Shown piece after piece: positions 1,191 to 63,623 of a stretch of DNA of 64,000 nucleotides (positions are counted from its first letter, which is position 1; every line of letters begins with the position of its first letter). The translations under genes and the position numbers were made by a program. Under the pieces are notes generated by a model that was given only the letters and a program-made list of their open reading frames with translations, made no database searches and had not been told where the DNA came from. This DNA is from Nannocystis bainbridge (lineage in GTDB: Bacteria; Myxococcota_A; Polyangia; Nannocystales; Nannocystaceae): assembly GCF_028368995.1 (NCBI RefSeq), contig NZ_JAQNDL010000005.1:1-64000 (forward strand), written 5' to 3'.

Positions 1191-2702
1191 ATGATCGACT
1201 GCGACTGCGTGTTCGAGCGCCCCGACCTGCCGGGGCTCCGCGACGACGAGGTGTTCGAGCACCTCGAGCGCTGCGGGACATGTCCCAAAGTACAGGCTGG
1301 CCCCGGACGGATCCTGCTCGCGCGCCTGCAGGACAGCGCCCGCAGCCTGCGCCGCGCCGCCAACCGGGCCCGCCAGGCCGAGCGCGAGCTCGCCGAGCTG
1401 CGGATCGACGTCGACCGCTCCGAGCAGCGGATCGCCAACCTCGAGCGGGTCCAGAAGGTCGGCACGCGCGAGGTCCTGCAGAAGAACGCCCTGCTGGCGA
1501 TGATCTCGAGCATCACGATCGCCGCCAACGAGGCCCAGACCGAGGCCGACGTGTACCGGATCTGCATGCACAAGGTCTGCTCGGCCTCGGGGTGGTCGCT
1601 CGCGCGCCTCACCCCCGCCGGTGGTGGCACCAGCCGCTGGCACGTCGCCGACCGCCTCGCCGCCGAGTTCACCGGCCTGCTCGGCGACGGCGAACCGACC
1701 GCGCTCGGCCTCGAGGCCCTGCGCGGCGGCAAGCCGGTGTGGGCGCCGGATCTGCGGGCCCGCCTCGACACGCCGTGGATCGAGCGCGCCGCCGCTCTCG
1801 GCCTGCGCGGCGGCGCGGCCCTGCCGGTGGTCGTCGGCGGCCACGCGATCGCCGTCGTCGAGTTCTTCGGCACCGCCGGCGAGGGCACCGCGACCGCGTT
1901 GATGCTGGCCATGGCGACCATCGGCGCCGAGATCGGCCGCGTGCTCGCGCGCCTGCGCGCCGACGAGGCCGTGGCCCACGCGCGCGACGCCGCCGAGGGC
2001 GCCAGCCGGGCCAAGAGCGCCTTCCTGGCCAGCATGAGCCACGAGCTGCGGACCCCGCTCAACGCCATCCTCGGCTACGCCGACCTCGTGCACGAGATCC
2101 TCGACGAGGAGGACGCGACCGACGTGCGCGGCGACATCGTCCGCATGCGACAGGCCGGCGAGCACCTGCTCGGCCTCATCAACAACATCCTCGACCTCTC
2201 CAAGGTCGAGGCCGGCCGCATGCCGGTGATCCCCGAGCGCTTCGACCTCGGGGCCCTCGTGCGCGACACCGCCGAGCTGCTCAAACCATTGATGGACCGC
2301 CGCAACAACGTCGCCCGCCTCGACCTCGCCGGCGACCTCGCCGACGTCGAGACCGACCCCACGCTGGTGCGCCAGATCCTCTTCAACCTGATCAGCAACG
2401 CCTCCAAGTTCACCGACGCCGGCACCATCAGCATCGCCGCCGCGCGCCAGACCGACCCTTCCGGCGAGCCATGGTTCCACCTCTCGGTCGCCGACACCGG
2501 CATCGGCATGACCGAGGCGCAGTGCGATCAACTGTTCGAGCCCTACCGCCAGGTCGACCCCCGCCTGGCCCGCCGCGCCGGCGGCACGGGCCTCGGCCTG
2601 TGCCTGTGCCGCGGCCTCTGCACCCTGCTCGGCGGCACGATCGCGGCGTACAGCGCCCCCGGACGCGGCTCCTGCTTCACCGTCCGCCTGCCGCTGCGCT
2701 GA
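1191..2702 (+). CDS. GAF-sensor histidine kinase with a Cys/His-rich N-terminus
   Basis: ATG at 1191, 5 bp after the FIST stop; H-box SHELRTPLNAI, N-box NLISNASKFT, DTGIGM, GGTGLGL; N-terminal CDC...HLERCGTC. Confidence 0.9.
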   Translation: MIDCDCVFERPDLPGLRDDEVFEHLERCGTCPKVQAGPGRILLARLQDSARSLRRAANRARQAERELAELRIDVDRSEQRIANLERVQKVGTREVLQKNALLAMISSITIAANEAQTEADVYRICMHKVCSASGWSLARLTPAGGGTSRWHVADRLAAEFTGLLGDGEPTALGLEALRGGKPVWAPDLRARLDTPWIERAAALGLRGGAALPVVVGGHAIAVVEFFGTAGEGTATALMLAMATIGAEIGRVLARLRADEAVAHARDAAEGASRAKSAFLASMSHELRTPLNAILGYADLVHEILDEEDATDVRGDIVRMRQAGEHLLGLINNILDLSKVEAGRMPVIPERFDLGALVRDTAELLKPLMDRRNNVARLDLAGDLADVETDPTLVRQILFNLISNASKFTDAGTISIAAARQTDPSGEPWFHLSVADTGIGMTEAQCDQLFEPYRQVDPRLARRAGGTGLGLCLCRGLCTLLGGTIAAYSAPGRGSCFTVRLPLR

Positions 2703-2963
2703 ATCACCGCGGTAGCGAATGCATGCACCCGCGGCTCGATGCATTCGCCGCGCTCACGGCTTCGGGTTTGCGAGCGGCGCCCGCAGATCGCAGCCGCCAC
2801 CCCGGATCACCAGCTCGCGGCCCTCGACCGTGACCGCGACGACGGGCGCGCCGCCGGGTCCGCGGGTGGGCTGGCGGCGACCTCCGCCGCGTCGCCCGCC
2901 GCCGGGACCGCCGGTGCCGCGGCCTCCGGCGCCCGCTCCTCCGCCGGCGGCCCGCCACCAACC

Positions 2964-3019
2964 GGTACGAAGAGACATGTTACAAAGGACATGTCGAATC
3001 GGACATGCTTCATGGGCCA
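2964..3019. repeat. Array of four 14-bp TGTCC-N4-GGACA-type units
   Basis: CATG junctions at 2976, 2990, 3004, 3018 (14-bp period). Confidence 0.85.
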
Positions 3020-3124
3020 TGCTCCCGGCGGCCGGAGCTGCGCGCCTCGACCGTCCGCCAGTGTGCCAGGAGATCGCGGCCGGTGGCGCTGGTGCGGCGT
3101 GGCCGGGGCGGCTACCCTGCCGGC

Positions 3125-3934
3125 GTGCGGATCGTGCAGATCGACCGCGAGCCGTTCCACGCGCTCGCGTACCTCGACGCCGCGCCGCGCGGCGGCTCGC
3201 AGACGCGCGAGCTGCCGCTGCTGCGCGCGCGCGTCGACGCGTTGCCGGCCCAGCTCGACGCCCTGCTCGTCACCTCCGACCTGCAGGGCCGGGCCGCCCT
3301 GGCCGAGGCCGGGGGCGCCCTGCGGCTGCTCGGCGAGGCGCTGGCCGAGGAGTACGCCACCCTCGCCGCGCTCGATCTCGTGCCCGACCCCGGCTTCACC
3401 GGCGTCGTGCTCGCGGGCGACCTCTACGCCGCCCCGGCCGCCGATCGCCTGGGCGCCACCGGCGACGTCCGCGACGTCTGGCGGGCCCTCGCCGCGCGCT
3501 TCCGCTGGGTCGCCGGTGTCGCCGGCAATCACGACCTGTTCGGCAAGCCGAGCGAGCAGGCCCGCTTCGTCCGCGAACCCGGCGTGCACCTGCTCGACGG
3601 CCGCCAGGTCGAGCTCGACGACCTCGGCGTCGCCGGCGTCGGCGGGATCTGCGGGCGCCCCGGCAAGCCCAATCGCCGCCCGCCCGACGAATTCGTGGCC
3701 GCGATCCGCCGCCTCCTGCCCGCGCGCCCGCACCTGCTCGTCCTGCACGAGGGCCCCGACGGCGGCCCGCACCGGTTCGGCAACCCCGACGTGCGCGCCG
3801 CCGTCGACGGCCGCGGCGCCCTCGTCGTCTGCGGCCACTCCCACTGGCACGACCCGCTGGTCGAGCTGCCGGGCGGCACCCAGGTCCTGAACGTCGACGC
3901 CCGCGCCGTCCTGCTCGAGCGCGCGGATGGCTGA
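3125..3934 (+). CDS. Calcineurin-like metallophosphoesterase
   Basis: SDLQG, AGDL, GNHD, LHEG, CGHSH motifs; GTG start at 3125 inferred, with TACCCT 6 nt upstream. Confidence 0.85.
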   Translation: MRIVQIDREPFHALAYLDAAPRGGSQTRELPLLRARVDALPAQLDALLVTSDLQGRAALAEAGGALRLLGEALAEEYATLAALDLVPDPGFTGVVLAGDLYAAPAADRLGATGDVRDVWRALAARFRWVAGVAGNHDLFGKPSEQARFVREPGVHLLDGRQVELDDLGVAGVGGICGRPGKPNRRPPDEFVAAIRRLLPARPHLLVLHEGPDGGPHRFGNPDVRAAVDGRGALVVCGHSHWHDPLVELPGGTQVLNVDARAVLLERADG

Positions 3935-3997
3935 TCGGGCATGCCCCGTCGGACATGCTCCATCGAGCATGTCTCATCGAACATGTCCCATCGGCCA
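3928..3997. repeat. Array of five 14-bp palindromic units
   Basis: CATG at 3940, 3954, 3968, 3982, 3996; units share an ATCG/GTCG core. Confidence 0.9.
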
Positions 3998-4014
3998 TGC
4001 TGAACGCACGCCGC

Positions 4015-4362
4015 TCACGGCGCGCGGAACTGCTGCGGCATCCCGTCCTCGACCGTGATCGTCACCACCACGTCGACCGGCCCCGGCGCGCCGACGTGGA
4101 GGATGAACGCCACCCCGCCGGAGTGCGGCGACACGTTCGACACCCACACGTCCGCGTCGCCGAGCGAGAAGATGTAGTCCTGCAGGCCCTGCCCGTCGGG
4201 GCCGACCACCGCGGCCGAGCCGTAGTCGGTCGCCTCGGCCGCCGACACGTGCACGATCGACAGCGGCGTGATCGGCGGGTGGATGCCCCACTTGAAGTCC
4301 AGGCGCGAGCGCCCGAGCAGGCCGTGCTCCTTGCCGTAGAAGACGCGGATCGAGTTCGCCAC
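4015..4362 (-). CDS. Hypothetical protein (about 115 aa, beta-rich)
   Basis: Good GC3 codon bias from GTG 4362 (VANSIRVFYGKEHG...); start inferred. Confidence 0.6.
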   Translation of the reverse strand: MANSIRVFYGKEHGLLGRSRLDFKWGIHPPITPLSIVHVSAAEATDYGSAAVVGPDGQGLQDYIFSLGDADVWVSNVSPHSGGVAFILHVGAPGPVDVVVTITVEDGMPQQFRAP

Positions 4363-4424: not shown

Positions 4425-5183
4425 TCAACCGTCGCGTCCGCCAGCGTCCGTCGCGTCGCCGCCGTCACCGACGACTCGCGCCTGCGCGCTCGCGCCGGCC
4501 ACCAGCTCGGTCGTGATGCCGAGTCCGGCGAGCGCGCCCGCCAGATCGGCCGGCAGCGGTGCCTTCACGGCGACCCGCGCCCCCGTGTGCGGGTGCGGCA
4601 GCGCCAGCGACCACGCGTGCAGCGCCAGCCGGTGCAGGTCGTGGTGCTCGCGGAACCACCGGTTGTGTTCGCCCTTGCCGTAGCGGACATCGCCGATCAG
4701 CGGGCAGCTGATGTGCTTCAGGTGGCGGCGGATCTGGTGCAGGCGCCCCGTCAGCGGCCGCGCCTCCACCAGCGCGTAGCGACCGGCGCGCGCCAGCGTC
4801 GTCACCTCCGTGACCGCCGGCACGCGCGGCCCGTCCTCCGCGCGCGGGATCGGGTGATCGATCGTCACCGCCGCGGGCGGGTTGCCGCGGACCAGCGCCA
4901 GGTAGCGCTTCTCGACCTGGCCCGAGGTCCAGACCTCCTGCATCGCCCGCGCCGTCGCCGAGTCGAGGGCGAACGCCAGCGCCCCGCTGGCCCCGCGGTC
5001 GAGGCGGTGCACCGGGTACACGTACGCCCCGACGGCCTCGCGCGCCAGGTCGAGCAGCGCCACCTCGTCGTCGGCCCAGCCGCGGTGGACCACCAGCCCG
5101 GCCGGCTTGGCGACGATCAGCAGCCGGTCGTCGCGGTAGAGGATGAAATCCTGCTGCCCCGAAGGACATGTCTCATCCGACAT
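4425..5183 (-). CDS. truC: RluA-family pseudouridine synthase (TruC-like, tRNA psi65)
   Basis: KPAGLVVH, HRLDRGASG, TGRLHQIRRH, GDVRYGKGEHNR; start inferred. Confidence 0.8.
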   Translation of the reverse strand: MSDETCPSGQQDFILYRDDRLLIVAKPAGLVVHRGWADDEVALLDLAREAVGAYVYPVHRLDRGASGALAFALDSATARAMQEVWTSGQVEKRYLALVRGNPPAAVTIDHPIPRAEDGPRVPAVTEVTTLARAGRYALVEARPLTGRLHQIRRHLKHISCPLIGDVRYGKGEHNRWFREHHDLHRLALHAWSLALPHPHTGARVAVKAPLPADLAGALAGLGITTELVAGASAQARVVGDGGDATDAGGRDG

Positions 5184-5245
5184 GCTCATGCCCCTCCACG
5201 ACATGACCGATCGGACATGTCCTCCGTGACATGGCCCGAGAGCCC
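5155..5245. repeat. Array of about six 14-bp palindromic units overlapping the truC start
   Basis: CATG at 5167, 5181, 5202, 5216, 5230, with one phase slip. Confidence 0.8.
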
Positions 5246-5247
5246 TG

Positions 5248-8133
5248 TCACTGCGCCCCCCCGGCCTCGCGCAGCTTCGCCGCGGCCAGGCGCTCGCGCT
5301 CGAACGCGGCCCCGGCCGCCTGCAGGTCCGCCTGCGCCTGCCCGGCCAGCTCCGCCGCGTCCGCCTCGCCGCGGGCCGCGTGGATCTGGGCCAGCGCCAG
5401 GCGGGCCCGCCCGCGCGCCAGCGGGGCCGGCAGCAGCGGCAGCGCCCGCCGCAGCAGCGGCTCCGCCAACTCGGGCGAGCCGCGGGCCAGCAGCACCCGC
5501 CCGCGCAGGGCCAGCGCCGCGGCGTTCTGCACCGGCGTCGCGCCCGGGCGCGGGCGCGGCAGCGCGGCCTCGGCCGCCTCGGCCTCACCCGCGAGCAGCA
5601 GCGTCTCGGCCAGCTCGGCGCGCGCCAGGTCGGTGTCGGGGTGATCGGCGCCGCGGTCCTTCTCGCGCAGCGCCAGCGCCTGCCGCAGCTCGACCAGCGC
5701 CTCCTCGAAGCGGCCCTGCCACGCCAGCGCCGCGCCGATGCCCGCGCGCACGTCGGCGACCGCGCCCGGGTCGACGCGCTCGCCCCCCGCCAGCAGCGCC
5801 AGCGCCCGCTGCGACAGCTGGCCCGCGTCGACCCACTGAGCCTGGCGCGCCAGCGACTTCGCAAGGTTGTCGAGCGTCGGCGCCAGCTTGACGTGGCGCG
5901 GCCCGTACAGCGTCTCCTCGGTCGCCAGCGCCCGCCGCAGCAGCGTCGTCGCCTGCGCCAGGTCGCCGACCTCCGTCAGCACCATCGCCAGGTTGCTGCG
6001 GCCGATCGCCACCTCCGGGTGATCCTTGCCGAACCGCGCCTCGCGGATCGCCAGCGAGCGCTCGAGGTGCTCCGCCGCCGCCGCCAGGTCGCCGCGCAGG
6101 AACTCGACCCGGCTCATGTTGCCGAGCACCAGCGCGACCTTCGGGTTGTCGGCCACGTCCTCGGCCTCGTAGATCGCCAGGGCCCGGCGATAGTCGGCGG
6201 CAGCCTCGTCGTTGCGGCCCTCGGCGGCGCGGACCACCGCGCGATTGTTGTGGAACGCCGCCGCGATGCGCGGCCGGTCGGACAGCCGCAGCAGCAGGGC
6301 CGCGGCGCTGCGCTCCCACAGCGCCGCGCGGACGCGGTCGTTGCGGTGATAGCCGTCGACGATCAGCAGCGCGCTCGCGGCCTCCGCGGCGACCTCGAGC
6401 GCACCTGTCCCGAGGGCCATAAAGTAAGCGTCGCTCAGCGCCGCCGACGCGCGCTCGTAGTCCGCCAGCGAGCGCTGGAGGTTGCCGATCCGCAGCAGCG
6501 CCTCGGCCACCAGCGCCGGCTCGCCGAGCGCGCGCGCGGCCGCCAGCACCACCTCCGCGCGGGCCAGCGCCGGCTTGTAGCGGCCGACCTCGTTGGCCGT
6601 CTTGATCTCCGCCAGCCAGCGCCGGACCTCCTCGCCGCGCATCGTCCGGCGGACATCGGTCTCGCGCAGCCACGCCGGCAGGCCCTCGACCTCGACGCAG
6701 GCCGCCACCGGCTCGAGCTGGCCCTCCGCCTTGACCGCGTGGCGCGCCGCCGAATCTGGCTCTTCGGCCAGGGCCGTCAGCATCGCCGCCAGCTCGCGCG
6801 CCTGTCCGCTGAGACAGGTCATGCGCCCGACCAGCGCCGGCTGCTGCTCGGGCGCCGCCTCCTCGTAGGCCTCACAGGCGGCCCGGTAGAGCTCGCTCCA
6901 GCGGCCCGCGCGGGCCTCCATCGCCGCCGCCAGCGTGGTCCACGTCTCGTCGGCGTACGGCGCCGCGACGCCGGTGATCGCCGCCCGCAGCGGGCCCTGT
7001 CGCTCGGCCCACAGGCGCGCGACCCGATCGGCGTGGCCCTCGCACTCGCCGACCGTCTCGCGCCACAGCGAGAACCCCAGCCCGCCGGCGACCGCCAGCA
7101 GCAGCACCAGCGCCGCCACCATCAGCCGGCGCCGGCGCAGCCGCGGCGCCTCGGTGATCGCGTGCAGCAGCGCGTCCATCGACGCGTGGCGCTGGTTCGG
7201 CACCGCCGCCAAGCCGCGGGCCAGCGCCGCGCGCAAGAACATCGGCACCTTCGCCAGCCGCGGCGGCCGCCGCAGCTCGCCGGCCATGACCGCCTGGAAG
7301 CGGTGCGCCGGGTCGCCGTCGGGGAACGGCCGCACCCCGAACAGCGCCTCGTAGAACGCCACGCAGAAGCTGAACTGATCCGACCGCGTATCGCACGGCA
7401 GCCCGAGGTGCTGCTCCGGCGCCATGTAGGGCGGCGTCCCGGCGATCATCGAGGTCTGCGGCCCGGGCGCGCCCGCGTGCAAGATCCGCGCGACCAGCGA
7501 CGACGGCGGCCCCACCCCCGTCATGCGCGCCAGCCCGAAGTCGAGCACGCGCACCCGCCCCTGCACGTCGATCATCGCGTTCTCGGGCTTGAAGTCGCGG
7601 TGGACCATCTCGGCGCGGTGGGCCGCCGCCAGCCCGCGCCCGGCCTGCACGAACGCCGCCGTCACCTCTTTCCATGGGCGCGGCGCGTCGCGGCCGATCC
7701 ACTTGCGCAGCGTCTCGCCCTCGATGAACTCCATCGCCACGAAGACCTCGTCGGCGAGCACCCCGACCTCGTGGACCGCGACCACGTTCGGGTGGTCGAG
7801 CCGCGCCAGCGCCTGCGCCTCGCGCAGCAGCCGGGCCGCGCCGTCGCCCCCGTCGTCGGAGGCGCGCAGCAGCTTGATGGCGATCTTGCGCCCGAGCTGG
7901 CGGTCCTCCGCCTTGTAGACCACGCCCATGCCGCCGGCGCCGAGCCGCGCCTCGATGGCGAAGCGGCCGATGCGCGCCGGCATGGCTGCCTCTTTGGACA
8001 TGTCCTCACGAACATGTCTCTTGCGCCCGGAGCGCGGCGGCTGGGTCGACATGTCCTGCTGCGGGCCCAGGCGCAGGGTCGGGGCCGATGCGCCCGGGAC
8101 CCCGTCGGACCGCTCGTCGCGCGAGCCGCTCAC
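5248..8133 (-). CDS. Membrane Ser/Thr protein kinase with C-terminal TPR repeats
   Basis: LGAGGMGVVY, IAIK, HRDFKPEN, DFG, GTPPYMAPE; one TM helix; kinesin-light-chain-like TPRs (GKDHPEVA, GADHPDT). Confidence 0.92.
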   Translation of the reverse strand: MSGSRDERSDGVPGASAPTLRLGPQQDMSTQPPRSGRKRHVREDMSKEAAMPARIGRFAIEARLGAGGMGVVYKAEDRQLGRKIAIKLLRASDDGGDGAARLLREAQALARLDHPNVVAVHEVGVLADEVFVAMEFIEGETLRKWIGRDAPRPWKEVTAAFVQAGRGLAAAHRAEMVHRDFKPENAMIDVQGRVRVLDFGLARMTGVGPPSSLVARILHAGAPGPQTSMIAGTPPYMAPEQHLGLPCDTRSDQFSFCVAFYEALFGVRPFPDGDPAHRFQAVMAGELRRPPRLAKVPMFLRAALARGLAAVPNQRHASMDALLHAITEAPRLRRRRLMVAALVLLLAVAGGLGFSLWRETVGECEGHADRVARLWAERQGPLRAAITGVAAPYADETWTTLAAAMEARAGRWSELYRAACEAYEEAAPEQQPALVGRMTCLSGQARELAAMLTALAEEPDSAARHAVKAEGQLEPVAACVEVEGLPAWLRETDVRRTMRGEEVRRWLAEIKTANEVGRYKPALARAEVVLAAARALGEPALVAEALLRIGNLQRSLADYERASAALSDAYFMALGTGALEVAAEAASALLIVDGYHRNDRVRAALWERSAAALLLRLSDRPRIAAAFHNNRAVVRAAEGRNDEAAADYRRALAIYEAEDVADNPKVALVLGNMSRVEFLRGDLAAAAEHLERSLAIREARFGKDHPEVAIGRSNLAMVLTEVGDLAQATTLLRRALATEETLYGPRHVKLAPTLDNLAKSLARQAQWVDAGQLSQRALALLAGGERVDPGAVADVRAGIGAALAWQGRFEEALVELRQALALREKDRGADHPDTDLARAELAETLLLAGEAEAAEAALPRPRPGATPVQNAAALALRGRVLLARGSPELAEPLLRRALPLLPAPLARGRARLALAQIHAARGEADAAELAGQAQADLQAAGAAFERERLAAAKLREAGGAQ

Positions 8134-12693: not shown

Positions 12694-15600
12694 CTACCGC
12701 TTCTTGTTCGCCGGCGTCGGTTTGCTCTCGGCGATCTGCGCCAGTTCGGCCAGCGCCGCCACCGCGACCTTGAGCTGCGTGCGGCGATCGGGCCCGCGGG
12801 CCTCGGGCACCGTCGCCACCACGCGGTCGCCTTGCAGCTTGAACTTGCCGTGCGTGCTCGCGCCCAGGCGACCGGCTGTCTCTCCGGACAGGGGCGTGTC
12901 GGGCCCGAGGCGGACCGCCAGGCGCGTGGCCTTGAGCTCGACCGCCAGCGCGCCGAGGCGGCGGCCGTAGGTCTTGCAGATCATCACCAGCCCGAGGTGC
13001 TCCGCCTCGAGCGGGGCTTCGCCGTAGCGGTCGATGATCTCGCTCATCACGTCCTCGACCGCATCGCGGTCGCGGGCCGCCGACAGCCGGCGGTACAGGT
13101 CGAGGCGCTGGCCGACGTCGCGGACGTACGCCTCCGGCAGGTAGGCCGGGCTGTCGAACGCGATCTCCGGATCGGTCTCCCGGAGGATCGGCTCGCCGCG
13201 CAGCTCGGCCACCGCCTCTTGCAGGATCCGCGCGTAGGCGTCGAACCCGATCGCCTGGATCTGCCCGCTCTGGCGCGCCCCCAGCAGCTCGCCGGCGCCG
13301 CGGATCTCGAGGTCGTGGACCGCCACGCCGAAGCCCGAGCCGAGCTCCGCGTGGCGCTGGATCGCCTCGAGCCGGCGGCGCGCCTCGGGGGCCAGCCGCT
13401 CGAGCGCCTGCACCATCAGGTAGCAGTGGGCGCGCTGCTTGCTGCGGCCGACGCGGCCGCGCAGCTGGTACAGCTGGGCCAGGCCGAACTGGTCGGCGTG
13501 GGCGATGAACATCGTGTTGGCGCGCGGGATGTCGAGCCCGCTCTCGATGATCGTCGTCGACACCAGCACGTCGGCGCGGTGCTCGACGAACTCGAGCATC
13601 GTCCGCTCGAGCATCTCCTCCGGCATCTGGCCGTGGGCGACCAGCACGCGGGCGTGCGGCACCAGCTCGCGGATCCGGACCGCGTGCTCCTCGATGCCGA
13701 GGATCTTCGGCACCACGTAGAACACCTGCCCGCCGCGGGCCAGCTCGCGGGTGATGCCCTCCTCGATCACCGCGTCGCCGATCCGGACGATGGCGGTCCT
13801 CACGGCCAGGCGGTCGATCGGCGGCGTGCGGATCATGCTGATCTCGCGCATGCCGAGCAGCGACATGTGCAGCGTGCGCGGGATCGGCGTGGCCGACATC
13901 GTCAGCACGTCGACCTGGGCCTTGAACTTCTTGAACCGCTCCTTCTGGGCCACCCCGAACCGCTGCTCCTCGTCGATCACGAGCAGGCCGAGGTCCTTGA
14001 AGCGCACGTCCTTGCCGAGCAGGCGGTGGGTGCCGATCACCACGTCGACCTCGCCGCTGGCGATGCCCTCGATCACGCGCCTCTGCTGGCGGTCGCTGGC
14101 GAAGCGGTTCAGCACCTCGACGCGCAGGTCGAACGGCGTCAGCCGCTCGCGGAAGGTGATCCCGTGCTGTTGCACGAGCACCGTCGTCGGCGCCAGCACG
14201 GCCACCTGGCGGCCGTTCTGGGCCACGCGGAAGGCTGCCCGCAGCGCGACCTCGGTCTTGCCGAAGCCGACGTCGCCGCAGATCAGGCGGTCCATCGGGC
14301 GGGCGCGGCCGAGGTCGCCCTGGACCGAGTCGATCGCCGTCTCCTGGTCGGGCGTCTCCTGGAACGGGAAGCTGTCGGCGAACGACTGGTCGTACTCGTC
14401 GGGGCCGGGGTAGGCGGTCCCGGGCGTCGCCTCGCGCTGGGCGTAGATCTGCAGCAGCTCCTCGGCCATCTGCCGCACCTCGGTCTTGACCTTGTTGGCC
14501 TTGACCAGGAAGGTGCTGCCGCCCATCTTGTCGAGCTTCGGCGGCTTGCCCTCGGCGGCCACGTAGCGCTCGATCTCCGACAGGCGGTAGACCGGCAGGT
14601 ACAGCTTGTCGCCGCCCGCGTACTCGAGCTGCACGTAATCGCCCGGCGCCCCGCCGAGCTGCAGCTGCACCAGCCCGACGTAGCGGCCGACGCCGTGCTG
14701 CAGGTGGACCACGTAGTCGCCGACCCCGAGCTGCGACAGGCTCGACAGGCCGGTGCGTCGGCGCGACTGGGCCCGCCGCGTCGACTTGCCGAACAGGTCG
14801 TACTCCGACAGCACCAGCAGCCGCGCCGCCGGGTAGTCGAAGCCCTCGCTGAGCTCGCCGACCGCCACCTGCACGCGCGTGCCCGCGGTCGTCGGCGCCC
14901 GCAGGTCGATCGGCGCCAGCTCGGGCGCCAGCGCCTCGGGGGCCAGGCCGTGGCCGCGCAGCGCCCCGACCAGGCGGTCGACCTGGGCCCGCCCCGGCAC
15001 CACCAGCAGCACCGTCCACGGCAGCAGCTCGCCGAGGTCGCCGGCGGCCGCCGGCGTGTCGGTCTGCAGCGCCCGGATCTGCTCGACCAGCGGGCGCATC
15101 GCCTCGCCGCTGCGGTCGGCCCGCGACGCCTCGAGCGCGGTCCGCAGCGGCTTGTTCGAGCCGACCTGCAGCCATACCGCCGGCCGCTCCTCGCCTGCCT
15201 GTTTGGACATGCCCTTGCGGGCATGCCCCTTCGGACCTGCCCCTTCGGACCTGTCCCCGGATTCAGATGATTCGCCCGGCTCGCCCTCGATCAGCAGCCG
15301 GGTCAGCACGATCGGCGCCGCGCGCAGGCGGCGGCCGAGGTCGGCGGCGGGCACGAAGAACTGCTCGGGCGGGGCGATCACGCCGCGCTCGGCGAGGGCG
15401 CGGCCGTGCTGCTCGTCCAGCTCTTGGGCCTGCTCCTCGGCGACCTGCTGCAGCGCGTCGGGCTCCTCGACGACCCATCGGGTGCCGCGCGGCAGGTAGT
15501 CCCACAGCGGCGCCATGCCGTCGTGGAAGATCGGGGTCAGCGCCTCGACGCCGAAGAACTCGAGGCCCTGCTCGAGGTTGTCGACGATCTGCCGGCTCTT

Positions 15601-16410
15601 GCTCGACGGCGCCAGCGCGGCGTCGGCGAGCGCCAGCACCCGCGTACGCAGCGAGGCCGCGGTGGTCGCCACCGTCTCGCGCACCGGGTGGATCGCCACC
15701 GAGGTGACCGCCCGCAGGCTGCGCTGCGACTCGGGGTCGAACAGGCGCAGGCGCTCGATCATGTCGTCGTCGAACTCGACGCGGGTCGGGAACCGCGAGC
15801 AGCCGACGAACAGGTCGATCACGCCGCCGCGGACCGCGTAGGTGCCCGGGTCCTCGACCACGTCGACGCGGGTGTAGCCGGCCCGCTGCAGCGCCGCGAT
15901 CGCGGCCTCGCGCGGCAGCTCGTCGCCCTCGCCCCAGCGCGTGCAGAGATCGAGGAATTGCGGCGGCGGGATCACCCGCCGACGCAGCGAATGGACGCTG
16001 GCGACGATCAGCTTGGGCGGCTCGGCGTGGCGATCGACGAGCCGGTACAGCGCCGCCAGCCGCAGCGCCATGGTCCGCGGGTCGGCGGCGGCGTCGGCGT
16101 ACGGCGAGGTGTCGAGCTCCGGCACCACCAGCACCGGGCCGTCGCCGGCCTCGCGCAGCGGAGCGCCGAGGAAGAACGCGGCGTCGCCGGCCAGGGCCCG
16201 CGCGCTGGCCTCGTCCGGCGCGACCGTGAACACCGGAGCCTCCGCCCGACTGGCCGCCATCGCCAGCGCGTAGCCGCGGAACCCGCCGACGGCGCCGACG
16301 ACCCGCACGTCGCTGGCCTCGCGCACCGCCGTGAGCACGCGCTCCAGCGGATCGCCGGGGACGACGGAGGCGGCGCGCTGCGAGGCGGGGGCGGCAGGAC
16401 GGTCGGGCAC
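12694..16410 (-). CDS. mfd: Transcription-repair coupling factor Mfd
   Basis: GDYVVHLQHGVGRY (RID), CGDVGFGKTEVA, DEEQRFG, SATPIPRT, QLRGRVGR, HDLEIRGAG; start approximate. Confidence 0.97.
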   Translation of the reverse strand: MPDRPAAPASQRAASVVPGDPLERVLTAVREASDVRVVGAVGGFRGYALAMAASRAEAPVFTVAPDEASARALAGDAAFFLGAPLREAGDGPVLVVPELDTSPYADAAADPRTMALRLAALYRLVDRHAEPPKLIVASVHSLRRRVIPPPQFLDLCTRWGEGDELPREAAIAALQRAGYTRVDVVEDPGTYAVRGGVIDLFVGCSRFPTRVEFDDDMIERLRLFDPESQRSLRAVTSVAIHPVRETVATTAASLRTRVLALADAALAPSSKSRQIVDNLEQGLEFFGVEALTPIFHDGMAPLWDYLPRGTRWVVEEPDALQQVAEEQAQELDEQHGRALAERGVIAPPEQFFVPAADLGRRLRAAPIVLTRLLIEGEPGESSESGDRSEGAGPKGHARKGMSKQAGEERPAVWLQVGSNKPLRTALEASRADRSGEAMRPLVEQIRALQTDTPAAAGDLGELLPWTVLLVVPGRAQVDRLVGALRGHGLAPEALAPELAPIDLRAPTTAGTRVQVAVGELSEGFDYPAARLLVLSEYDLFGKSTRRAQSRRRTGLSSLSQLGVGDYVVHLQHGVGRYVGLVQLQLGGAPGDYVQLEYAGGDKLYLPVYRLSEIERYVAAEGKPPKLDKMGGSTFLVKANKVKTEVRQMAEELLQIYAQREATPGTAYPGPDEYDQSFADSFPFQETPDQETAIDSVQGDLGRARPMDRLICGDVGFGKTEVALRAAFRVAQNGRQVAVLAPTTVLVQQHGITFRERLTPFDLRVEVLNRFASDRQQRRVIEGIASGEVDVVIGTHRLLGKDVRFKDLGLLVIDEEQRFGVAQKERFKKFKAQVDVLTMSATPIPRTLHMSLLGMREISMIRTPPIDRLAVRTAIVRIGDAVIEEGITRELARGGQVFYVVPKILGIEEHAVRIRELVPHARVLVAHGQMPEEMLERTMLEFVEHRADVLVSTTIIESGLDIPRANTMFIAHADQFGLAQLYQLRGRVGRSKQRAHCYLMVQALERLAPEARRRLEAIQRHAELGSGFGVAVHDLEIRGAGELLGARQSGQIQAIGFDAYARILQEAVAELRGEPILRETDPEIAFDSPAYLPEAYVRDVGQRLDLYRRLSAARDRDAVEDVMSEIIDRYGEAPLEAEHLGLVMICKTYGRRLGALAVELKATRLAVRLGPDTPLSGETAGRLGASTHGKFKLQGDRVVATVPEARGPDRRTQLKVAVAALAELAQIAESKPTPANKKR
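15196..15251. repeat. Four in-phase 14-bp units inside mfd
   Basis: Includes two identical TGCCCCTTCGGACC units (15224-15237, 15238-15251). Confidence 0.85.
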
Positions 16411-16464
16411 GACGGAGCCGCGGGAGGGTAGCGGCGCCGCCTCGCCCCCGCTACCCTGCTCGTC

Positions 16465-47964: not shown

Positions 47965-49263
47965 TCACCGACGTGATGTCGCGGGCCGCGGGGCCTCCGC
48001 CAATGCGAGCGAGAACTCGAGCTCGGACCGCGAGACCGCGGCGGTGACGACCCGCGCCCGGTAGTCGACGCCGAGCATGTCGAACTCGATCGCGCCGGCG
48101 ACCGACTCGCTGAGGGCGAAGGTCTGCCGGCCGAGACCGGAGAACCACACCGCCGCGCGCACCCGCAGCGCGCCCGTGACCTCCTCGAGCGTGCCGTCGG
48201 CGACCTCCACCGCCAGGTCACCGCCGCGCTCGGCGGCGGCCTTCGGCGTGCCGCCGAAGCTGAGGCGGGCGCAGGTGCCCTCGGTGCTCCACGCGTGGAC
48301 CTTGAGCGGCCGCTCGCCGGCCCGCCAGTCGACGCCCGCGAGCAGCTCGCCGCGCGGGTCGGGGGCGCCGTCGCGGTTGTAGCGCGCCGGGATCTGGCCG
48401 CTCGCCATGGCCCGGTTGGCCAGCGCGGCCGCCACCCCGCCCGACATGCGCAGACCGACCAGGCGGGCGTCGCTGCCCGGCGGGCGAGCTGTCCCCGGGG
48501 ACAGGGCCTCCGCCGGCAGCGCGGCGTGGGCCCACAGCTCGAGGTCGGTCGCCCCGCTCTTCAGCTCGATCTTCGTCAACGGGACGTCGCCGAGGTCGAT
48601 CTCGAGGTCGACGAGGTCGTCTGTCCCTTGGAGCAGGTTGTCGCGGATCTGCGGCCAGCGCCCGCCGACCAGCTCGCGCAGGAAGGTCTCGGCCAGCGCC
48701 TCGACCTGCTCGCGCCCGACCAGCGCGCGCGCGGCCCCGGGCACCAGCGACAGCAAGAACTCGGCGAACCGCTTGCGCTCGGCCGGCGGCAGGCTCGGCC
48801 TCACTTCGCGGAGGTCGGCGGCGCCGAGGCGCAGGCGCACGCTGCCGGCGGCCGGATCGAGGCGCGGCGCGACCACGGCGTCGAGCTCGAGCGCGGTGAC
48901 GGGCTTGCCCTGACTGAGGAGGGCCACGCTCACGCGCGCGCCGACGCTGCCGGCCGGGGCCGGGCGAAAGGCGACGCTGCGGATCGTCACCGCGAGCGCG
49001 CCGAGATCGACCGGGCCGAGGTCGGGCAGCGGCAACCGCACCTGCGGCAGGCTGGCCAGCGAGCGCTGCACGCTCTGGCTCAGCGTCGCGTACGGCACCG
49101 CCAGGGCCAGGTGGGGGCCGGGCGCGGCGGCGCGGCGCGTGAAGGCCTCGCGGTCGGCTCGCACCTTGCTGCACACCGAGCTGGCGCAGCCGGGCGTCGT
49201 CAGCAGCAGCGGGATCAGCGGGGCGAGGACGAGGAGGACGCCGGGGGCGGGACGAGGGCGCAT
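47965..49263 (-). CDS. Hypothetical lipoprotein
   Basis: Signal with TPGC lipobox; strong GC3 bias. Confidence 0.7.
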   Translation of the reverse strand: MRPRPAPGVLLVLAPLIPLLLTTPGCASSVCSKVRADREAFTRRAAAPGPHLALAVPYATLSQSVQRSLASLPQVRLPLPDLGPVDLGALAVTIRSVAFRPAPAGSVGARVSVALLSQGKPVTALELDAVVAPRLDPAAGSVRLRLGAADLREVRPSLPPAERKRFAEFLLSLVPGAARALVGREQVEALAETFLRELVGGRWPQIRDNLLQGTDDLVDLEIDLGDVPLTKIELKSGATDLELWAHAALPAEALSPGTARPPGSDARLVGLRMSGGVAAALANRAMASGQIPARYNRDGAPDPRGELLAGVDWRAGERPLKVHAWSTEGTCARLSFGGTPKAAAERGGDLAVEVADGTLEEVTGALRVRAAVWFSGLGRQTFALSESVAGAIEFDMLGVDYRARVVTAAVSRSELEFSLALAEAPRPATSRR

Positions 49264-52897: not shown

Positions 52898-53347
52898 ATG
52901 GCACAGAGCCGCTACCTCATCATCGGCCTCGGTCGCTTCGGCGCCGCCCTGGCCGAATCGCTCGCCGAGCAGGGCGCCGAAGTCATCGCCGTCGACCGCG
53001 ACATGGCCATGGTCGACGCCGTCAAGAAGAAGGTCGCCTACGCGATCGAGCTCGACGCCACCGACCCGCAGGCGCTGCTGTCCATCGACCCGCTCAAGTG
53101 CCGGGCCGCGATCGTCGCCATCGGCGAGAACTTCGAGGCCACCGTGCTCACCCTCGCCGCCCTCAAGGAGGTCGGCGTGCGCGACATCGTCGCCCGCTCC
53201 CGCTCCGCCCGCGAGTCGCGCATCCTCCAGGCCGTCGGCGCGACCCAGGTGATCGAGCTCGAGTACGAGATGGGCCGCACCTTCGGCAAGCGCCTGATCG
53301 GCAGCGCCGAGGCCCAGCCCGCCCTCGGCCAGGCGCTCAAGCCCTGA
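52898..53347 (+). CDS. trkA: TrkA/KtrA RCK-N NAD-binding subunit
   Basis: IIGLGRFG, DATD, IVAIGE; RCK-C absent. Confidence 0.9.
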   Translation: MAQSRYLIIGLGRFGAALAESLAEQGAEVIAVDRDMAMVDAVKKKVAYAIELDATDPQALLSIDPLKCRAAIVAIGENFEATVLTLAALKEVGVRDIVARSRSARESRILQAVGATQVIELEYEMGRTFGKRLIGSAEAQPALGQALKP

Positions 53348-53428
53348 CTCTCGGTACATGTCCGATCGGGCCTGTCCGAAAGGGCATGCCTATCGGGACA
53401 TGTCGATATGTACATGTCACCGAGGACA
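53345..53428. repeat. Array of six 14-bp palindromic units starting on the trkA stop codon
   Basis: Units start at 53345, 53359, 53373, 53387, 53401, 53415. Confidence 0.92.
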
Positions 53429-53555
53429 TGTACGACCGCGCCCCGAGCATCACGCCGGCCGAGCGCCCCGCGACCGCTTAAACGACCAGCGGCCCGACGC
53501 CGGAGCGACGGACCGCGCGAGGAGCGTTGAGGAGCCGCCCCCGGTCTTCGATCGT

Positions 53556-56270: not shown

Positions 56271-56274
56271 ACCC

Positions 56275-61572: not shown

Positions 61573-61632
61573 GCGATGATTCAGCCGGAGGCGCCTTGGC
61601 CTCCGGCTGTCTTTTGAGACATGTGCTGACAA

Positions 61633-63177
61633 TCAGGGCCGAACGAACAGCGCGCCGCTGTAAATCCACGGCGCCTCGATCTCGGCGTATTCGGGCGCGT
61701 CGCCGAGGTACGGCAGCAGGTGCTTCGGCGTGACCCACACCTCCACGCGATACACCCCAGGCCCGGGCGCCTCGATCTCGATCTGTCCGCTCGACCAGGT
61801 CATGAGCTCCTCGCGCTCGTCGGCGGTCGCCCGGTACAGCACCCCGCGCACGCCCGGCGCCTCCGGGCCCTGCGGACTGCGCGGGTCGAGCGTCGGCAGC
61901 ACGGCCCGCAGCGTCAGCGGACCGCCGGCCAGCGACACCTCGGCCCCCATCTCGGTCACCGCGGCCCCCTCGGCGTAAAAATCGAACCCGACCGGCGTGC
62001 CGAGCGACTCGAACACGATGTGGTTGTTACCCGCGCGCAGCGCCGCCTTGACCGCCTGCGGCGTGAACTCGGCGGTGCGGATGCGGTTGTTGAACCACCG
62101 GATCATGCGCCGATACGAGTCGCCGCGCTCGCCGTCGGTGGCGATGGTGTCGAACACGTTCTGATGCGCGTCGGTGCCGGCGGAGATCGTCAGCCGCTGC
62201 GTCTGCCCGAGCGTCTCGAGCGCCACGATCGACGGCTCGTTGGGCAGCAAGAACCCCAGCGTCGCCAGATCGGGCTGCCGCCCCGGCTGCAGGAAGAACG
62301 GGATGATCGCCGCGAAGTAATCGTCGTCGTCGAGGCCGAGGTCCTCCATGCGGATGTCGGGGTCGAGGTTGGCGTGCAGCTGGTACAGCTCGATCCCATC
62401 GAGCCCGAGCGTCGCCAATTCGGCGAGGTCGCGGCCCTCCGTGTGCGCCACCCAGGCCAACGCGCCGGCCTCCTTGATCGCCGCGAACGCCGCCGGCGAG
62501 CTCGTGCCGTACACGTCGCTCACGTGCTTCTCGAGCCCGAACGGCATCATCTGGGCGCTCTCGATCCCCGGCATCACCATCACCTTGTGACCGTCCGGGC
62601 ACTTGAGCCACGCGGCGATCGGCGTCCCGCCGTCCCCGAGGATCGGCTCGTCCATCTCGCGCATCAGCAGCAGCTCCTCGTAGGCCGCCTCGGTCGCGTG
62701 CGTCGGATGGTCGCTCAACATCGCCACGTCGATCCGCGGCGTGCACAGCCCGAAGCGGAGATCCGCCAGACAATCCTCGTCGGGCACCCCGTTCGGCTGC
62801 GGATCGCCGTCGCACGCGTCGTGCGAGTGGTGCGAGTGCAGGTGCATGATCGCCCGCAGCTCGCGCTGGCCGCGGATCGTCGCGCAGCCGGAGATGTCGG
62901 GCTGCCCCTTGTCCCACGCGATCGGCGTGTCGGGCGGCGAAGTCTCGGCGCACCCGCCCTCGACCCCGGTCGTGCCGGTCGCCGTGGTGTCGTCGGTCGT
63001 CGACGTCGGCACGGTCGTCGTCGGCTCGCCCGTGCCCGTGGTGGAGCCGGTCGTCGTCGCGGCGCCGCTCGTCGTCGTCCCCGTCGAAGTCTCGCTGGCC
63101 GCTCCCGTCTCGCCCCCCGAACCATTGCACGCCCCGATCAGCAGCGCTCCGCTCACGATGCACGCCCAGTTGCGCAT
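61633..63177 (-). CDS. Lipoprotein with Thr-rich linker and PHP-like metal-binding domain
   Basis: Lipobox LIGAC; HLHSHHSHD, SDH, AHTE, GTDAH. Confidence 0.8.
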   Translation of the reverse strand: MRNWACIVSGALLIGACNGSGGETGAASETSTGTTTSGAATTTGSTTGTGEPTTTVPTSTTDDTTATGTTGVEGGCAETSPPDTPIAWDKGQPDISGCATIRGQRELRAIMHLHSHHSHDACDGDPQPNGVPDEDCLADLRFGLCTPRIDVAMLSDHPTHATEAAYEELLLMREMDEPILGDGGTPIAAWLKCPDGHKVMVMPGIESAQMMPFGLEKHVSDVYGTSSPAAFAAIKEAGALAWVAHTEGRDLAELATLGLDGIELYQLHANLDPDIRMEDLGLDDDDYFAAIIPFFLQPGRQPDLATLGFLLPNEPSIVALETLGQTQRLTISAGTDAHQNVFDTIATDGERGDSYRRMIRWFNNRIRTAEFTPQAVKAALRAGNNHIVFESLGTPVGFDFYAEGAAVTEMGAEVSLAGGPLTLRAVLPTLDPRSPQGPEAPGVRGVLYRATADEREELMTWSSGQIEIEAPGPGVYRVEVWVTPKHLLPYLGDAPEYAEIEAPWIYSGALFVRP

Positions 63178-63623
63178 AGTCGCCTCCAAGATCGCGCACA
63201 CGATATCACGGTCTCGGGCCCCGTCAGCGCCATGGGCCGTGCGCCGACTCCCGTCCCATGCGACATCGGCGCGCGACATGACATGTCCTTCTGCACATGT
63301 CCCTCAAGACAGCACCTCCGTTCACGTCGACGCCTGCGGCGACTCGCGGGCGCCAACGAGGTGACGTCCCGCAACCCAGGCCACGCATCCCCGACACCAG
63401 ATTCGCCGCTGACCAGGCCGCCGACCGCAAGACCGAACCCGCGACGAATCACTCGTAGCCGCCGAGCCCGGCACGCACGCCGCAAGGACAGCCGTCGTCT
63501 ACACGCCCCATGCGCCTCGAGCTCGTCCCGCACCGCGCTCGCACGCCGCACCCGAGGCCCCCGCGCGCTTCCCGGACCGCGGCGGGTGACGGCGCCCGGC
63601 CCCGGGGTGTAGTCTCGGATGCC

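Follow-up and report, generated by a model that had tools for sequence, protein, structure and literature searches.

A 14-bp palindromic word iterated in strictly phased arrays and single copies throughout Nannocystis genomes

The window analysed here, a stretch of 64,000 nt from the 11-Mb, five-contig genome of a soil myxobacterium of the genus Nannocystis, carries a 14-bp palindromic unit, TGYCC-N4-GGRCA, that recurs as single copies and as head-to-tail arrays, both behind genes and within them (Table 1). The same sequence can alternatively be read as a decamer palindrome, GGRCATGYCC, with a repeat step of 14 bp. Units were scored at thresholds of ≥12 bits and ≥14 bits, window counts were compared with dinucleotide shuffles (n = 100 for the exact pattern TGTCC-N4-GGACA) and counts within genes with codon permutations. 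Gene statements rest on a crude GC3-based ORF caller that returned 6,327 genes covering 74–77% of each contig, for which stop codons are exact, start codons are unreliable and some genes are missed.

Table 1 Arrays and selected single units of the 14-bp word in the window.
Coordinates	Feature	Basis	Context and further observations
2964..3033	array, ~5 units, 4 CATG junctions 14 bp apart	CATG chain	
3928..4011	array, ~6 units	CATG chain, Tandem Repeats Finder	fills gap between convergent genes 3005..3934 (+) and 4015..4362 (-); orthologue of gene 3005..3934 has 3-4 units at its 3' end in the 3 species compared; predicted RNA fold -41.2 kcal/mol, z -4.65
5155..5245	adjoining pair of arrays, 5155-5196 and 5190-5245	CATG chains	abut stop of gene 5248..8133 (-)
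6803..6816	single unit TGTCCGCTGAGACA	relaxed pattern	in gene 5248..8133
7987..8028	short array, 2 CATG junctions	CATG chain	near called 5' end of gene 5248..8133 (tentative context)
12877..12890	single unit TGTCTCTCCGGACA	relaxed pattern	in gene 12694..17955
15194..15257	period-14 array, 4.6 copies	Tandem Repeats Finder, CATG chain	within called gene 12694..17955 (-)
17913..17996	array, ~6 units, 5 CATG junctions	CATG chain, Tandem Repeats Finder	predicted RNA fold -39.2 kcal/mol, z -2.51
19214..19283	array, ~5 units	CATG chain, sequence read directly	three units form one long near-perfect palindrome, because the outer units' spacers are complementary
21931..22000	array, 5 units	CATG chain	between convergent genes; begins 7 nt past stop of gene 19978..21924 (+); 2-3 units in orthologues; predicted RNA fold -45.7 kcal/mol, z -7.10
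30494..30507	single unit TGTCCCTTCGGACA	exact pattern	11 nt past stop of gene 29758..30483; duplicated at 30597 via a 66-bp tandem repeat
31196..31251	array, 3 CATG junctions	CATG chain	within gene 30746..31690 (+)
31744..31757	single unit TGTCTGAAAGGACA	relaxed pattern	second unit at 31705-31718; both between convergent genes 30746..31690 and 31795..32340
41855..41910	array, 4 units	translated as ..HSVLEDMLSETCSLDHAD..	in acyl-CoA-synthetase-like gene 41253..43142
42881..42894	single unit TGTCCCCGCGGACA	exact pattern	in gene 41253..43142; kept in 4/4 aligned orthologues, spacers differing
43148..43228	short array 43148-43189 and single unit 43215-43228	CATG chain, Tandem Repeats Finder	directly past stop (43142) of gene 41253..43142
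45434..45489	array, 4 units	CATG chain	begins at TAG stop of gene 44893..45435; behind the same stop in 6/6 species with 2-4 units, rest of gap unalignable; predicted RNA fold -35.3 kcal/mol, z -5.04
46793..46948	array	CATG chains	first unit includes TGA stop of gene 45896..46795; split in this genome by a ~65 bp insert into 46793-46848 and 46879-46948; in 6/6 species (alignment A1), half-sites kept, spacers differing
48490..48503	single unit TGTCCCCGGGGACA	exact pattern	within a gene; kept in 5/5 orthologues with spacers CCGG, CCGA and CAGA
53345..53442	array, ~7 units	CATG chain	first unit includes TGA stop of gene 52898..53347; 3-5 units in orthologues; predicted RNA fold -43.9 kcal/mol, z -4.18
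63270..63311	short array	CATG chain	called 5' end of gene 61633..63279 (-); divergent or 5' context

The window holds 77 units of ≥12 bits, so that an earlier note's estimate of about 60 loci by eye was fair. The exact pattern occurs 8 times against 0.05 expected, a count that none of the 100 shuffles reached, and 18 matches to the relaxed pattern TGTCY-N4-RGACA, where 0.08 would be expected, include all six singletons named in that note (6803, 12877, 30494, 31744, 42881 and 48490). CATG-N10-CATG is present 42 times (0.60 expected; shuffle maximum 4), and the spacings between CATG sites number 42 at a lag of 14, 22 at 28 and 12 at 42, with 0–6 at each remaining lag up to 100. These sites form 22 in-phase CATG chains, into which all ten of the previously named array positions fall (46893 lies within 46879–46948), and Tandem Repeats Finder independently reported period-14 arrays at 8 places.

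The over-representation extends to the whole genome, where 315 units of ≥12 bits and 44 of ≥14 bits would be expected and 8,137 and 4,510, respectively, are present; the density is ~0.74 per kb (0.64–0.91 per kb across all five contigs). Among the 39,940 CATG sites of the genome, the lags 14, 28, 42, 56 and 70 occur 3,736, 2,073, 1,586, 751 and 383 times, over a background of ~300 for lags divisible by 3 and ~100 for all others, and the neighbouring lags of 13 and 15 occur 72 and 262 times. The genome-wide 14-bp peak and the near-invariant period proposed earlier are thus borne out. The half-site separation is similarly strict, with 2,828 occurrences of TGYCC-Nk-GGRCA at k = 4 and 18–93 at each other k from 0 to 17. 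Scored at the unbiased middle position, the letters of the CATG junction reach 0.94 (C), 0.92 (A), 0.93 (T) and 0.93 (G), and no other part of the array is as well conserved. Singletons carry C at position −1 in 53–67% and G at +1 in 49–65%, in line with the C...G flanks described before. Loci are distributed along the chromosome in clusters rather than regularly (coefficient of variation of the spacing, 1.40), which argues against a ruler-like architectural role.

Arrays are concentrated at the ends of genes. They occupy 455 of 1,285 convergent gaps compared with just 36 of the 1,065 divergent ones (odds ratio 15.7), and their median distance from the stop codon is ~17 nt, whereas the following start codon lies 231 nt away; in 61 of the 799 stop-adjacent arrays the stop codon itself opens the array. 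Gene interiors nevertheless contain 2,432 units of ≥12 bits, whereas codon permutation predicts 64, and the 14–20-bp consensus is enriched 38–116 fold there. The in-gene units use all three frames (186, 590 and 638), and they thin out where codon optimisation is strongest, their density dropping to 0.20 per kb from 0.47. They take the form either of a single 14-bp word without length change or of multiples of the 42-bp unit triplet; the length of in-gene arrays differs between species, and some are translated as 14-residue repeats, as expected from the claim that 42 bp preserves the reading frame. The anchoring at stop codons, the concentration between convergent genes and the thousands of single units within genes all go beyond the earlier note.

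The word is present in 10 of 10 other Nannocystis genomes and in none of the 30 other genera searched; among 300 other genomes of the phylum, one gave one single hit, and no 14-bp periodicity appeared in 360 kb from the closest other genus. The word is specific to the genus Nannocystis, and its ~8,100 copies in this genome, spread over every contig and lying inside and outside genes, amount to the kind of genomic signature that the earlier note had suggested by reference to HIP1, DUS and REP. At two orthologous arrays, each found in 6/6 species, the half-sites are kept while spacers and unit numbers change, and array presence at orthologous 3′ ends is mostly conserved. Within genes, third codon positions are identical between species in 284 of 306 core cells of the alignments compared with 2,573 of 2,997 cells outside the unit (Fisher p = 0.0004), and in 66 of 90 spacer cells. 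The core letters and the phase are thus conserved between species and the N4 spacers drift. Adjacent units share a spacer in 3.5% of 4,360 pairs (1.1% of random pairs), a low identity indicating that the arrays are old rather than products of fresh slippage. A few arrays do have identical neighbouring units, including 8 near-identical units at G000 C3:1085817.

Tentatively, and at a little short of an even chance, we favour the explanation that the word is read on double-stranded DNA by a putative symmetric protein that packs side by side, and that arrays at the ends of transcripts additionally form REP-like hairpins. The existence of a protein reader, its action on duplex DNA and the purpose of the word are points that we infer. 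The putative reader would be two-fold symmetric and contact each half-site separately, and its copies would pack every 14 bp, ~120° apart around the helix, with three units making four helical turns. Purifying selection or biased transmission would keep the units, which would accumulate wherever the DNA tolerates them: as head-to-tail arrays in the untranslated stretch that follows a stop codon, chiefly where genes converge, and as single units in the three frames of coding sequence, where a few arrays would be kept in frame and translated. Once transcribed, an array would fold back into one long stable hairpin because every decamer can pair with every other, and arrays at gene ends probably also act like REP/BIME hairpins. 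The earlier proposal that the word is bound by a dimeric protein polymerising on the DNA is compatible with the independent half-sites, strict phase and conserved core, but the comparators named for it do not fit, because RacA ram, Noc NBS, SlmA SBS and matS sites are few and regionally confined whereas the ~8,000 units here are evenly spread. Tandem operator arrays for polymerising repressors, such as the met-boxes of MetJ, the hexamer arrays of Fur and the heptads of omega, are similar in that short abutting sites at a fixed step allow protein dimers to touch; those arrays lie at few promoters, in contrast to the Nannocystis arrays at ~2,300 gene ends.

An unlikely alternative is that the word acts mainly in RNA, as 3′ untranslated elements resembling REP/BIME whose fold-back hairpins shield the mRNA upstream of them against 3′ exonucleases or contribute to termination, bidirectionally where genes converge, with in-gene singletons as spill-over. 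Stop-codon anchoring, which is more naturally explained by a role in the transcript than in DNA, and the enrichment in convergent gaps both favour it, as do the predicted RNA folds of five arrays (−35 to −46 kcal/mol, z −2.5 to −7.1); a single unit, however, folds at only −5 kcal/mol. In two relatives (L001 and L003) the array sits after the stop codon and upstream of a canonical terminator and is therefore probably transcribed. Canonical hairpin-plus-T-run terminators are rare (394 of 6,325 gene 3′ ends), which makes another 3′-end device plausible, yet their frequency is the same 6.2% with arrays (55/892) and without (339/5,433). There are also weak signals of the kind that structure would leave. 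When mismatches are oriented by the upstream gene, U·G-type exceed C·A-type (512 versus 375, p = 5e-6), an excess for which a transcription-linked C-to-T bias would be an alternative source. Spacers two units apart are reverse-complementary in 4.4% of pairs compared with 1.3% of random pairs, and spacer complementarity in three-unit arrays is 0.38 versus 0.29. Spacer words oriented by the upstream gene show no strand preference (TTCG 37 versus CGAA 33, CTTC 36 versus GAAG 32), a symmetry that counts in favour of the main reading. Against a role mainly in RNA, no compensatory changes appeared in any pairing scheme examined. Pairing positions 3–12, 4–11 and 5–10 showed no covariation, with mutual information of ≤0.05 bits in arrays and, among 2,978 singletons, of ≤0.026 bits. 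Independent variation is also seen in the extended flanks AC[C/A]...[G/T]GT (0.022 bits for −1/+1), and units symmetric about the array centre covary no more than permuted ones. The sequence is constrained and the pairing is not, and the in-gene excess, with core third positions more conserved than their neighbours, also speaks against this alternative.

The likeness to REP/BIME lies in a short palindromic unit, a copy number of hundreds to thousands, clustering behind genes with some copies inside them, and the capacity for stable RNA hairpins. Di Nocera et al. (2013, PMC3733652) describe REPs, GTAG- and CGTC-tagged ones included, in enterobacteria and pseudomonads, make the case that these elements are transcribed and function at the RNA level, and report REPs within genes. 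The Nannocystis unit differs in being just 14 bp long, joined head-to-tail without linker and in strict phase, in its lack of a GTAG or CGTC tag, in its stems without covariation and in its much larger in-gene share. It also lacks a RAYT gene, since PF01797 had 0 matches in this genome, in a search whose control was positive in 6 of 14 genomes, and it is thus not a RAYT/REP system; CGTC-type REPs are likewise described in PMC3733652 as lacking a dedicated transposase. The arrays had no match in Rfam.

A role of the word as a signal for DNA uptake or 'self' recognition is distinctly unlikely; in that case a surface or periplasmic receptor would prefer word-carrying DNA, and uptake with recombination would then spread the word through the genome by molecular drive. 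The uptake sequences of Neisseriaceae (DUS) and Pasteurellaceae (USS) occur about once per kb in coding and non-coding DNA, in lineage-specific dialects, with hairpin-forming copies behind genes, and in favour of such a signal in Nannocystis are the density of the word on every contig, its use of all three frames, its lower density in the most codon-optimised genes, its dialect-like restriction to a single genus and the hairpin-forming copies accumulated behind genes. To our knowledge, however, neither DUS nor USS has a palindromic unit or tandem arrays in strict phase, and drive alone leaves the stop-codon anchoring and the strict phase unexplained.

A word without any dedicated reader, arising as an RCATGY methyltransferase or repair-bias by-product (HIP1-like) or as a selfish, slippage-prone minisatellite tolerated behind genes, is very unlikely: CATG as best-conserved core, the few arrays with identical neighbours, the between-species length variation of in-gene arrays and a D12-class adenine methyltransferase gene would suit it, but that family occurs in 13 of 15 genera sampled, most without the word, the in-gene enrichment far exceeds known repair-bias effects, and the low adjacent-unit identity, strict phase and cross-species core conservation point to constraint. 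In cyanobacteria, the highly iterated palindrome HIP1 (GCGATCGC) is likewise short, lineage-specific and hugely over-represented in and between genes, and we know of no agreed function for it; the Nannocystis word is longer (14–20 bp) with a free 4-bp centre and, in contrast to HIP1, builds tandem arrays of strict phase that have their anchor at stop codons; no link of the word to a methyltransferase was found.

Rickettsia palindromic elements (RPE) lie in frame within genes and are mobile-looking, at ~100–150 bp. They share with the Nannocystis arrays the presence of translated, in-frame repeat DNA in protein-coding genes, whereas the Nannocystis form is a 14-bp word without length change or comes in 42-bp triplet multiples. 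RPE are also mentioned in PMC3733652. The M. xanthus nucleoid protein CdbA offers a further parallel, being described in PMC7156744 as a ribbon-helix-helix tetramer whose target is a GC-rich repeat with a 4-bp separation, at >500 sites in and between genes. Its motif, however, is a direct repeat, and CdbA is reported there in all sequenced Myxococcales. The word, by contrast, was found only in Nannocystis. The literature searched held no published description of the 14-bp word, in agreement with the earlier note, which knew of none in myxobacteria, and the word, apparently new, looks related to the families of small repeats known from other bacteria, namely REP, HIP1 and uptake sequences.

The array in the acyl-CoA-synthetase-like gene is no insertion, the segment being of the same length or differing by ≤1 residue in 7 Nannocystis orthologues. 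Its array-like letters are absent from the orthologue of another genus (G011) and are present, with rare codons, in 7/7 aligned Nannocystis orthologues.

The palindrome TGYCC-N4-GGRCA is strongly over-represented and exactly phased throughout the 11.05-Mb genome of N. bainbridge (71.5% GC, five contigs; contig C5 begins with the 64-kb window). The window holds 8 exact copies of TGTCC-N4-GGACA where 0.05 are expected and 18 of the relaxed form TGTCY-N4-RGACA where 0.08 are expected, and the relaxed form recovered all six lone units (singletons) named in the earlier note. Head-to-tail units abut at a CATG junction, and CATG-N10-CATG occurs 42 times in the window versus 0.60 expected and a maximum of 4 in 100 shuffles. 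CATG spacings there number 42 at lag 14, 22 at lag 28 and 12 at lag 42, with 0–6 at every other lag up to 100. The window contains 22 in-phase CATG chains, among which the ten arrays listed in the earlier note are all present, and Tandem Repeats Finder independently reported period-14 arrays at 8 places. The predicted 14-bp autocorrelation peak extends to the whole genome: among 39,940 CATG sites, lags of 14, 28, 42, 56 and 70 were found 3,736, 2,073, 1,586, 751 and 383 times, over a background of ~100 (~300 at multiples of three). The half-site separation is equally strict, with 2,828 occurrences of TGYCC-Nk-GGRCA at k = 4 and 18–93 at any other k from 0 to 17, and GGRCA is followed directly by TGYCC 1,771 times. 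Scoring with a symmetrised position weight matrix, calibrated for 71% GC, against a third-order Markov model gave 8,137 units at ≥12 bits (315 expected) and 4,510 at ≥14 bits (44 expected). In-phase chaining yielded 2,553 arrays of at least two units; 498 have three units, 260 four, 282 five, 146 six and 38 at least seven, the longest having 21. About 1% of the 11-Mb genome is made of this one 14-bp word.

Array ends are whole units (TG...CA). At the middle junction of CATG-N24-CATG (n = 2,073), chosen as an unbiased position, the junction letters are the best conserved of the unit (C 0.94, A 0.92, T 0.93, G 0.93; exact CATG in 1,670), followed by Y/R at unit positions 3 and 12 and C/G at positions 4, 5, 10 and 11. 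Because the junction is the best-conserved part, an array can be read either as abutting 14-bp palindromes or as a decamer, GGRCATGYCC, that recurs at 14-bp intervals. The four letters at the centre are close to unconstrained, though A/T-rich. They are non-random, positions 7 and 8 sharing 0.52 bits; CTTC/GAAG, TTCG/CGAA, CTCG/CGAG and TTTC/GAAA dominate and TA-containing spacers are depleted among units called by a matrix with a built-in preference for A and T at spacer positions. Singletons have the extended consensus A-C-[C/A]-TGTCC-N4-GGACA-[G/T]-G-T, which bears out the C...G flanks first seen by eye.

The arrays lie mainly behind genes. Using our own GC3-based caller (6,327 genes, with exact stop codons but unreliable starts), we found 653 of the 988 arrays with at least three CATG junctions to be wholly outside called genes. 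By type of gap, 455 arrays are in convergent, 296 in co-directional and 36 in divergent gaps, against totals of 1,285, 3,238 and 1,065 gaps (odds ratio of 15.7, convergent versus divergent); of the 466 arrays with at least five units, 260 are in convergent gaps and 12 in divergent ones. The median distance of an array is ~17 nt from a stop codon versus 231 nt to the next start codon, and arrays of at least three units are present at 892 of 6,325 gene 3′ ends (14%). Among 799 stops with a nearby array, the first unit starts exactly at the stop codon in 61, so that TGA forms unit positions 1–3, and is offset by 14 nt upstream in 21 and 14 nt downstream in 24. At 155 of the 799 stops the array begins before the stop codon, so that the final codons consist of array sequence. 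Certain convergent gaps are filled by array all the way between the two stops (Table). Stop-to-stop distances are not set in multiples of 14, the mod-14 distribution being flat in 753 convergent gaps with only residue 13 slightly raised, at 74.

Units are also abundant inside genes. Within 7.10 Mb of confident gene interior we counted 2,432 units at ≥12 bits and 1,273 at ≥14 bits, versus 64 and 11 expected under within-gene codon permutation; counts lie well above both the Markov and the codon null, the condition set in the earlier note. Units occur in every frame (186, 590 and 638 units). Their density falls from 0.47 units per kb in the least codon-optimised genes to 0.20 in the most, and climbs from 0.23 to 0.45 per kb as genes get longer. 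Ninety-four arrays >150 nt inside called genes were found, part of them artefacts of start-codon calls. Since each junction carries ATG on both strands, arrays supply start codons and mislead ORF callers; our own caller ran several ORFs through intergenic arrays, and an apparent 8-unit in-gene array (a 307-residue ORF in three copies) was rejected as an ORF extended across an intergenic array. The word is accordingly a trap for gene callers. Genuine in-gene arrays, on contigs C2, C3 and elsewhere, encode 14-residue repeats such as GHxxKDMSxGxGAS and RAWPxDHVSxDMTx. These repeats sit in linker-like segments beside hydrophobic stretches, and their number varies by species. The word rewrites C-terminal tails and puts 14-residue repeats into linkers. 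Judged from aligned orthologues, the in-gene array of the window is not an insertion: its segment has the same length, or differs by at most one residue, in seven Nannocystis orthologues.

Coordinates of individual features in the window, on the contigs of N. bainbridge (C1–C5) and in the genome of the nearest other genus (G011)
Sequence	Position	Feature	Observation
Window	2964–3033	Array near called start	ATG on both strands at every junction, as in other arrays near called starts
Window	24680..25894	Gene	One clear array gain or loss
Window	30463–30593	66-bp repeat, 2 copies	Single TGTCCCTTCGGACA unit duplicated along with its surroundings
Window	38594–38810	54-bp tandem repeat, 4 copies	
Window	41855–41910	In-gene array	Array-like letters and rare codons (ACA, TTG) kept in 7/7 Nannocystis orthologues, not in the other-genus orthologue
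Window	46975–47045	Hairpin element, ~70 nt (AAATTGGACGG...CGTCCAAAAAC)	Near-invariant in 6 Nannocystis species; surrounding gap varies
Window	47055..47579	Gene, minus strand	Hairpin element lies just downstream
C2	1–4300	Contig start	Repeats the duplication at the C5 end
C2	2021920–2024277	In-gene array	GHxxKDMSxGxGAS three times; segment, variable in length, shared by six close Nannocystis genomes, missing from three more distant ones and one other-genus genome
C3	1012650–1015292	In-gene array	14-residue repeats
C3	1487022	Convergent gap	13 units, stop to stop
C5	705000–720618	Contig end	Inverted duplication of several genes
G011 C18	1–360000 (loci L019–L036)	Own over-represented palindrome	TGCAC-N5-GTGCA, 23 versus 0.43 expected; TGCA recurs with spacing 6

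The word is a trait of the genus. One protein from the window is 85–94% identical to records of N. pusilla, N. punicea, N. exedens, N. radixulma and N. sp. RBIL2, and the presence in related genomes that the earlier note had wished to see established was found: all 10 other Nannocystis genomes have a two-unit pattern, against 0 of 30 from other genera of the family and class. A degenerate pattern, run on 300 further genomes of the phylum (209 genera tallied), gave one site in a single genome versus 184 per strand in N. bainbridge, and 360 kb of the nearest other genus showed no 14-bp CATG periodicity. Carriage by phage was rejected, as 14 viral contigs had one chance-like site each and no array under a matrix that over-calls in AT-richer DNA. 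The word is a clean marker of Nannocystis DNA in metagenomes.

Within the genus, what is kept is the core and the phase. Behind the stops of two window genes an array is present in six of six species, with half-sites kept and spacers and unit numbers varying; the remainder of one such gap is unalignable. Comparison of 32 gene ends with three syntenic genomes showed that having or lacking an array is mostly a shared state while unit numbers vary; a single clear gain or loss was seen. We compared 27 in-gene units in three species: identity per position is 0.90–1.00 in the core, 0.75–0.89 in the spacer and ~0.88–0.92 in the flanks; third codon positions are identical in 284 of 306 cases in the core versus 2,573 of 2,997 outside the unit (p = 0.0004), and in 66 of 90 in the spacer (p = 0.002). 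Neighbouring units have the same spacer in only 3.5% of 4,360 pairs (1.1% of random pairs), so most arrays are old and have diverged save for cores and phase. Reads from four soil metagenome runs gave only short contigs, in which the absence of 14-bp indels at arrays carries no weight. The retention of core letters and phase across the compared Nannocystis species is a strong, unexplained constraint on genome sequence.

A symmetric protein that reads duplex DNA and packs every 14 bp fits the symmetry of the word, its conserved letters, the independence of its half-sites, its free 4-bp centre and its strict step; this is the reading we tentatively favour while holding it somewhat short of even. 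If a protein reads the word, its sites would be among the densest specific sets known in a bacterium, and would offer a handle on gene-end marking in GC-rich genomes with few classical terminators. CdbA of M. xanthus, a ribbon-helix-helix tetramer, binds a GC-rich repeat separated by 4 bp at >500 sites (PMC7156744); the CdbA family would be a candidate reader of the word. RacA ram, Noc NBS, SlmA SBS and matS, which the earlier note had offered for comparison, do not fit: they are present in tens of copies and region-confined or region-excluded, whereas the 8,137 units are spread over all five contigs at 0.64–0.91 per kb. Regular chromosomal spacing of loci is ruled out by a coefficient of variation of 1.40.

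An RNA-level, REP-like role is less probable, and rather unlikely on our estimate, although anchoring at stop codons and a very stable fold-back speak for it. Arrays are predicted to fold as RNA into a single long fold-back, held by pairing between decamers on opposite arms, with no rows of mini-hairpins; five arrays gave −35 to −46 kcal/mol (z of −2.5 to −7.1) and a single unit −5 kcal/mol. In two relatives an array lies between the stop codon and a canonical terminator, and is therefore probably transcribed. Two weak signals are of the structure type: U·G-type mismatches outnumber C·A-type ones (512 versus 375, p = 5e-6) in upstream-gene orientation, and spacers two units apart are reverse-complementary in 4.4% of pairs versus 1.3% of random pairs. 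No compensatory change was detected within units (mutual information ≤0.05 bits), in 2,978 singletons with stems extended to 8 bp (≤0.026 bits) or between units symmetric about the array centre, and a hairpin kept for structure only was rejected on this lack of covariation. Relative to the upstream gene, spacer words favoured neither strand. Arrays lack the T run of intrinsic (Rho-independent) terminators and do not stand in for them, since hairpin-plus-T-run terminators are equally frequent at 3′ ends with arrays (55 of 892) and without (339 of 5,433; 6.2% each). Roles on DNA as a protein site and at the RNA level may coexist.

REP/BIME elements likewise lie outside genes and behind them, often between convergent genes. 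Their units alternate in orientation with defined linkers, whereas those of Nannocystis follow one another head-to-tail without any linker, at a constant step of 14 bp, and the GTAG or CGTC tag at one end of REP palindromes is absent from units that start with TG, end with CA and are flanked by AC[C/A] and [G/T]GT. A REP system driven by RAYT, the Y1/HUH transposase tied to such elements, was rejected: PF01797 had no match at E ≤ 0.001 in this genome (90.5% complete), and the same search was positive in 6 of 14 control genomes. No Rfam family matched the window at gathering score, and no prior description of the word was found in the literature searched. The word belongs among small iterated palindromes, where its strict phase, stop-codon anchoring, lack of a transposase and heavy in-gene presence are unusual.

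Returning to a protein that reads duplex DNA, the arrays could be polymerisation tracks of a putative DNA-binding protein, Nannocystis-specific or shifted in specificity, that would build nucleoprotein plugs at ~2,300 gene ends; we regard this extension as unlikely. The candidate would be a small ribbon-helix-helix or similar nucleoid protein with a 14-bp step, and single in-gene sites would seed the protein elsewhere. If true, it would amount to genome-wide, sequence-coded insulation of converging transcription units, or to supercoiling management between them. An uptake-sequence-like signal is more doubtful still. DUS/USS uptake sequences, like the word, are distributed evenly over genes and intergenic DNA with roughly 1 copy per kb, and density, in-gene presence and a genus-level 'dialect' all recall them; were the word such an uptake or drive signal, natural transformation would be indicated in a group prized for its natural products. 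In view of the observed constraint, the least likely reading, which we hold to be very improbable, is that the word is a selfish minisatellite or a side effect of methylation or of biased repair. The word does resemble HIP1-like palindromes in being strongly over-represented in coding and non-coding DNA. The D12-class (adenine methyltransferase) gene of this genome is not specific to the genus, its family being present in 13 of 15 sampled genera, and is therefore uninformative on a genus-specific CATG methyltransferase.

Hairpin-plus-T-run structures occur within 200 nt of only 394 of 6,325 called gene ends, so classical intrinsic terminators seem rare in this genome. The hairpin element of the window, which has no Rfam match, is probably the terminator of the minus-strand gene next to it, or a small RNA, given its position. 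The duplication shared by the end of contig C5 and the start of C2 may be a contig-end repeat or an assembly effect.
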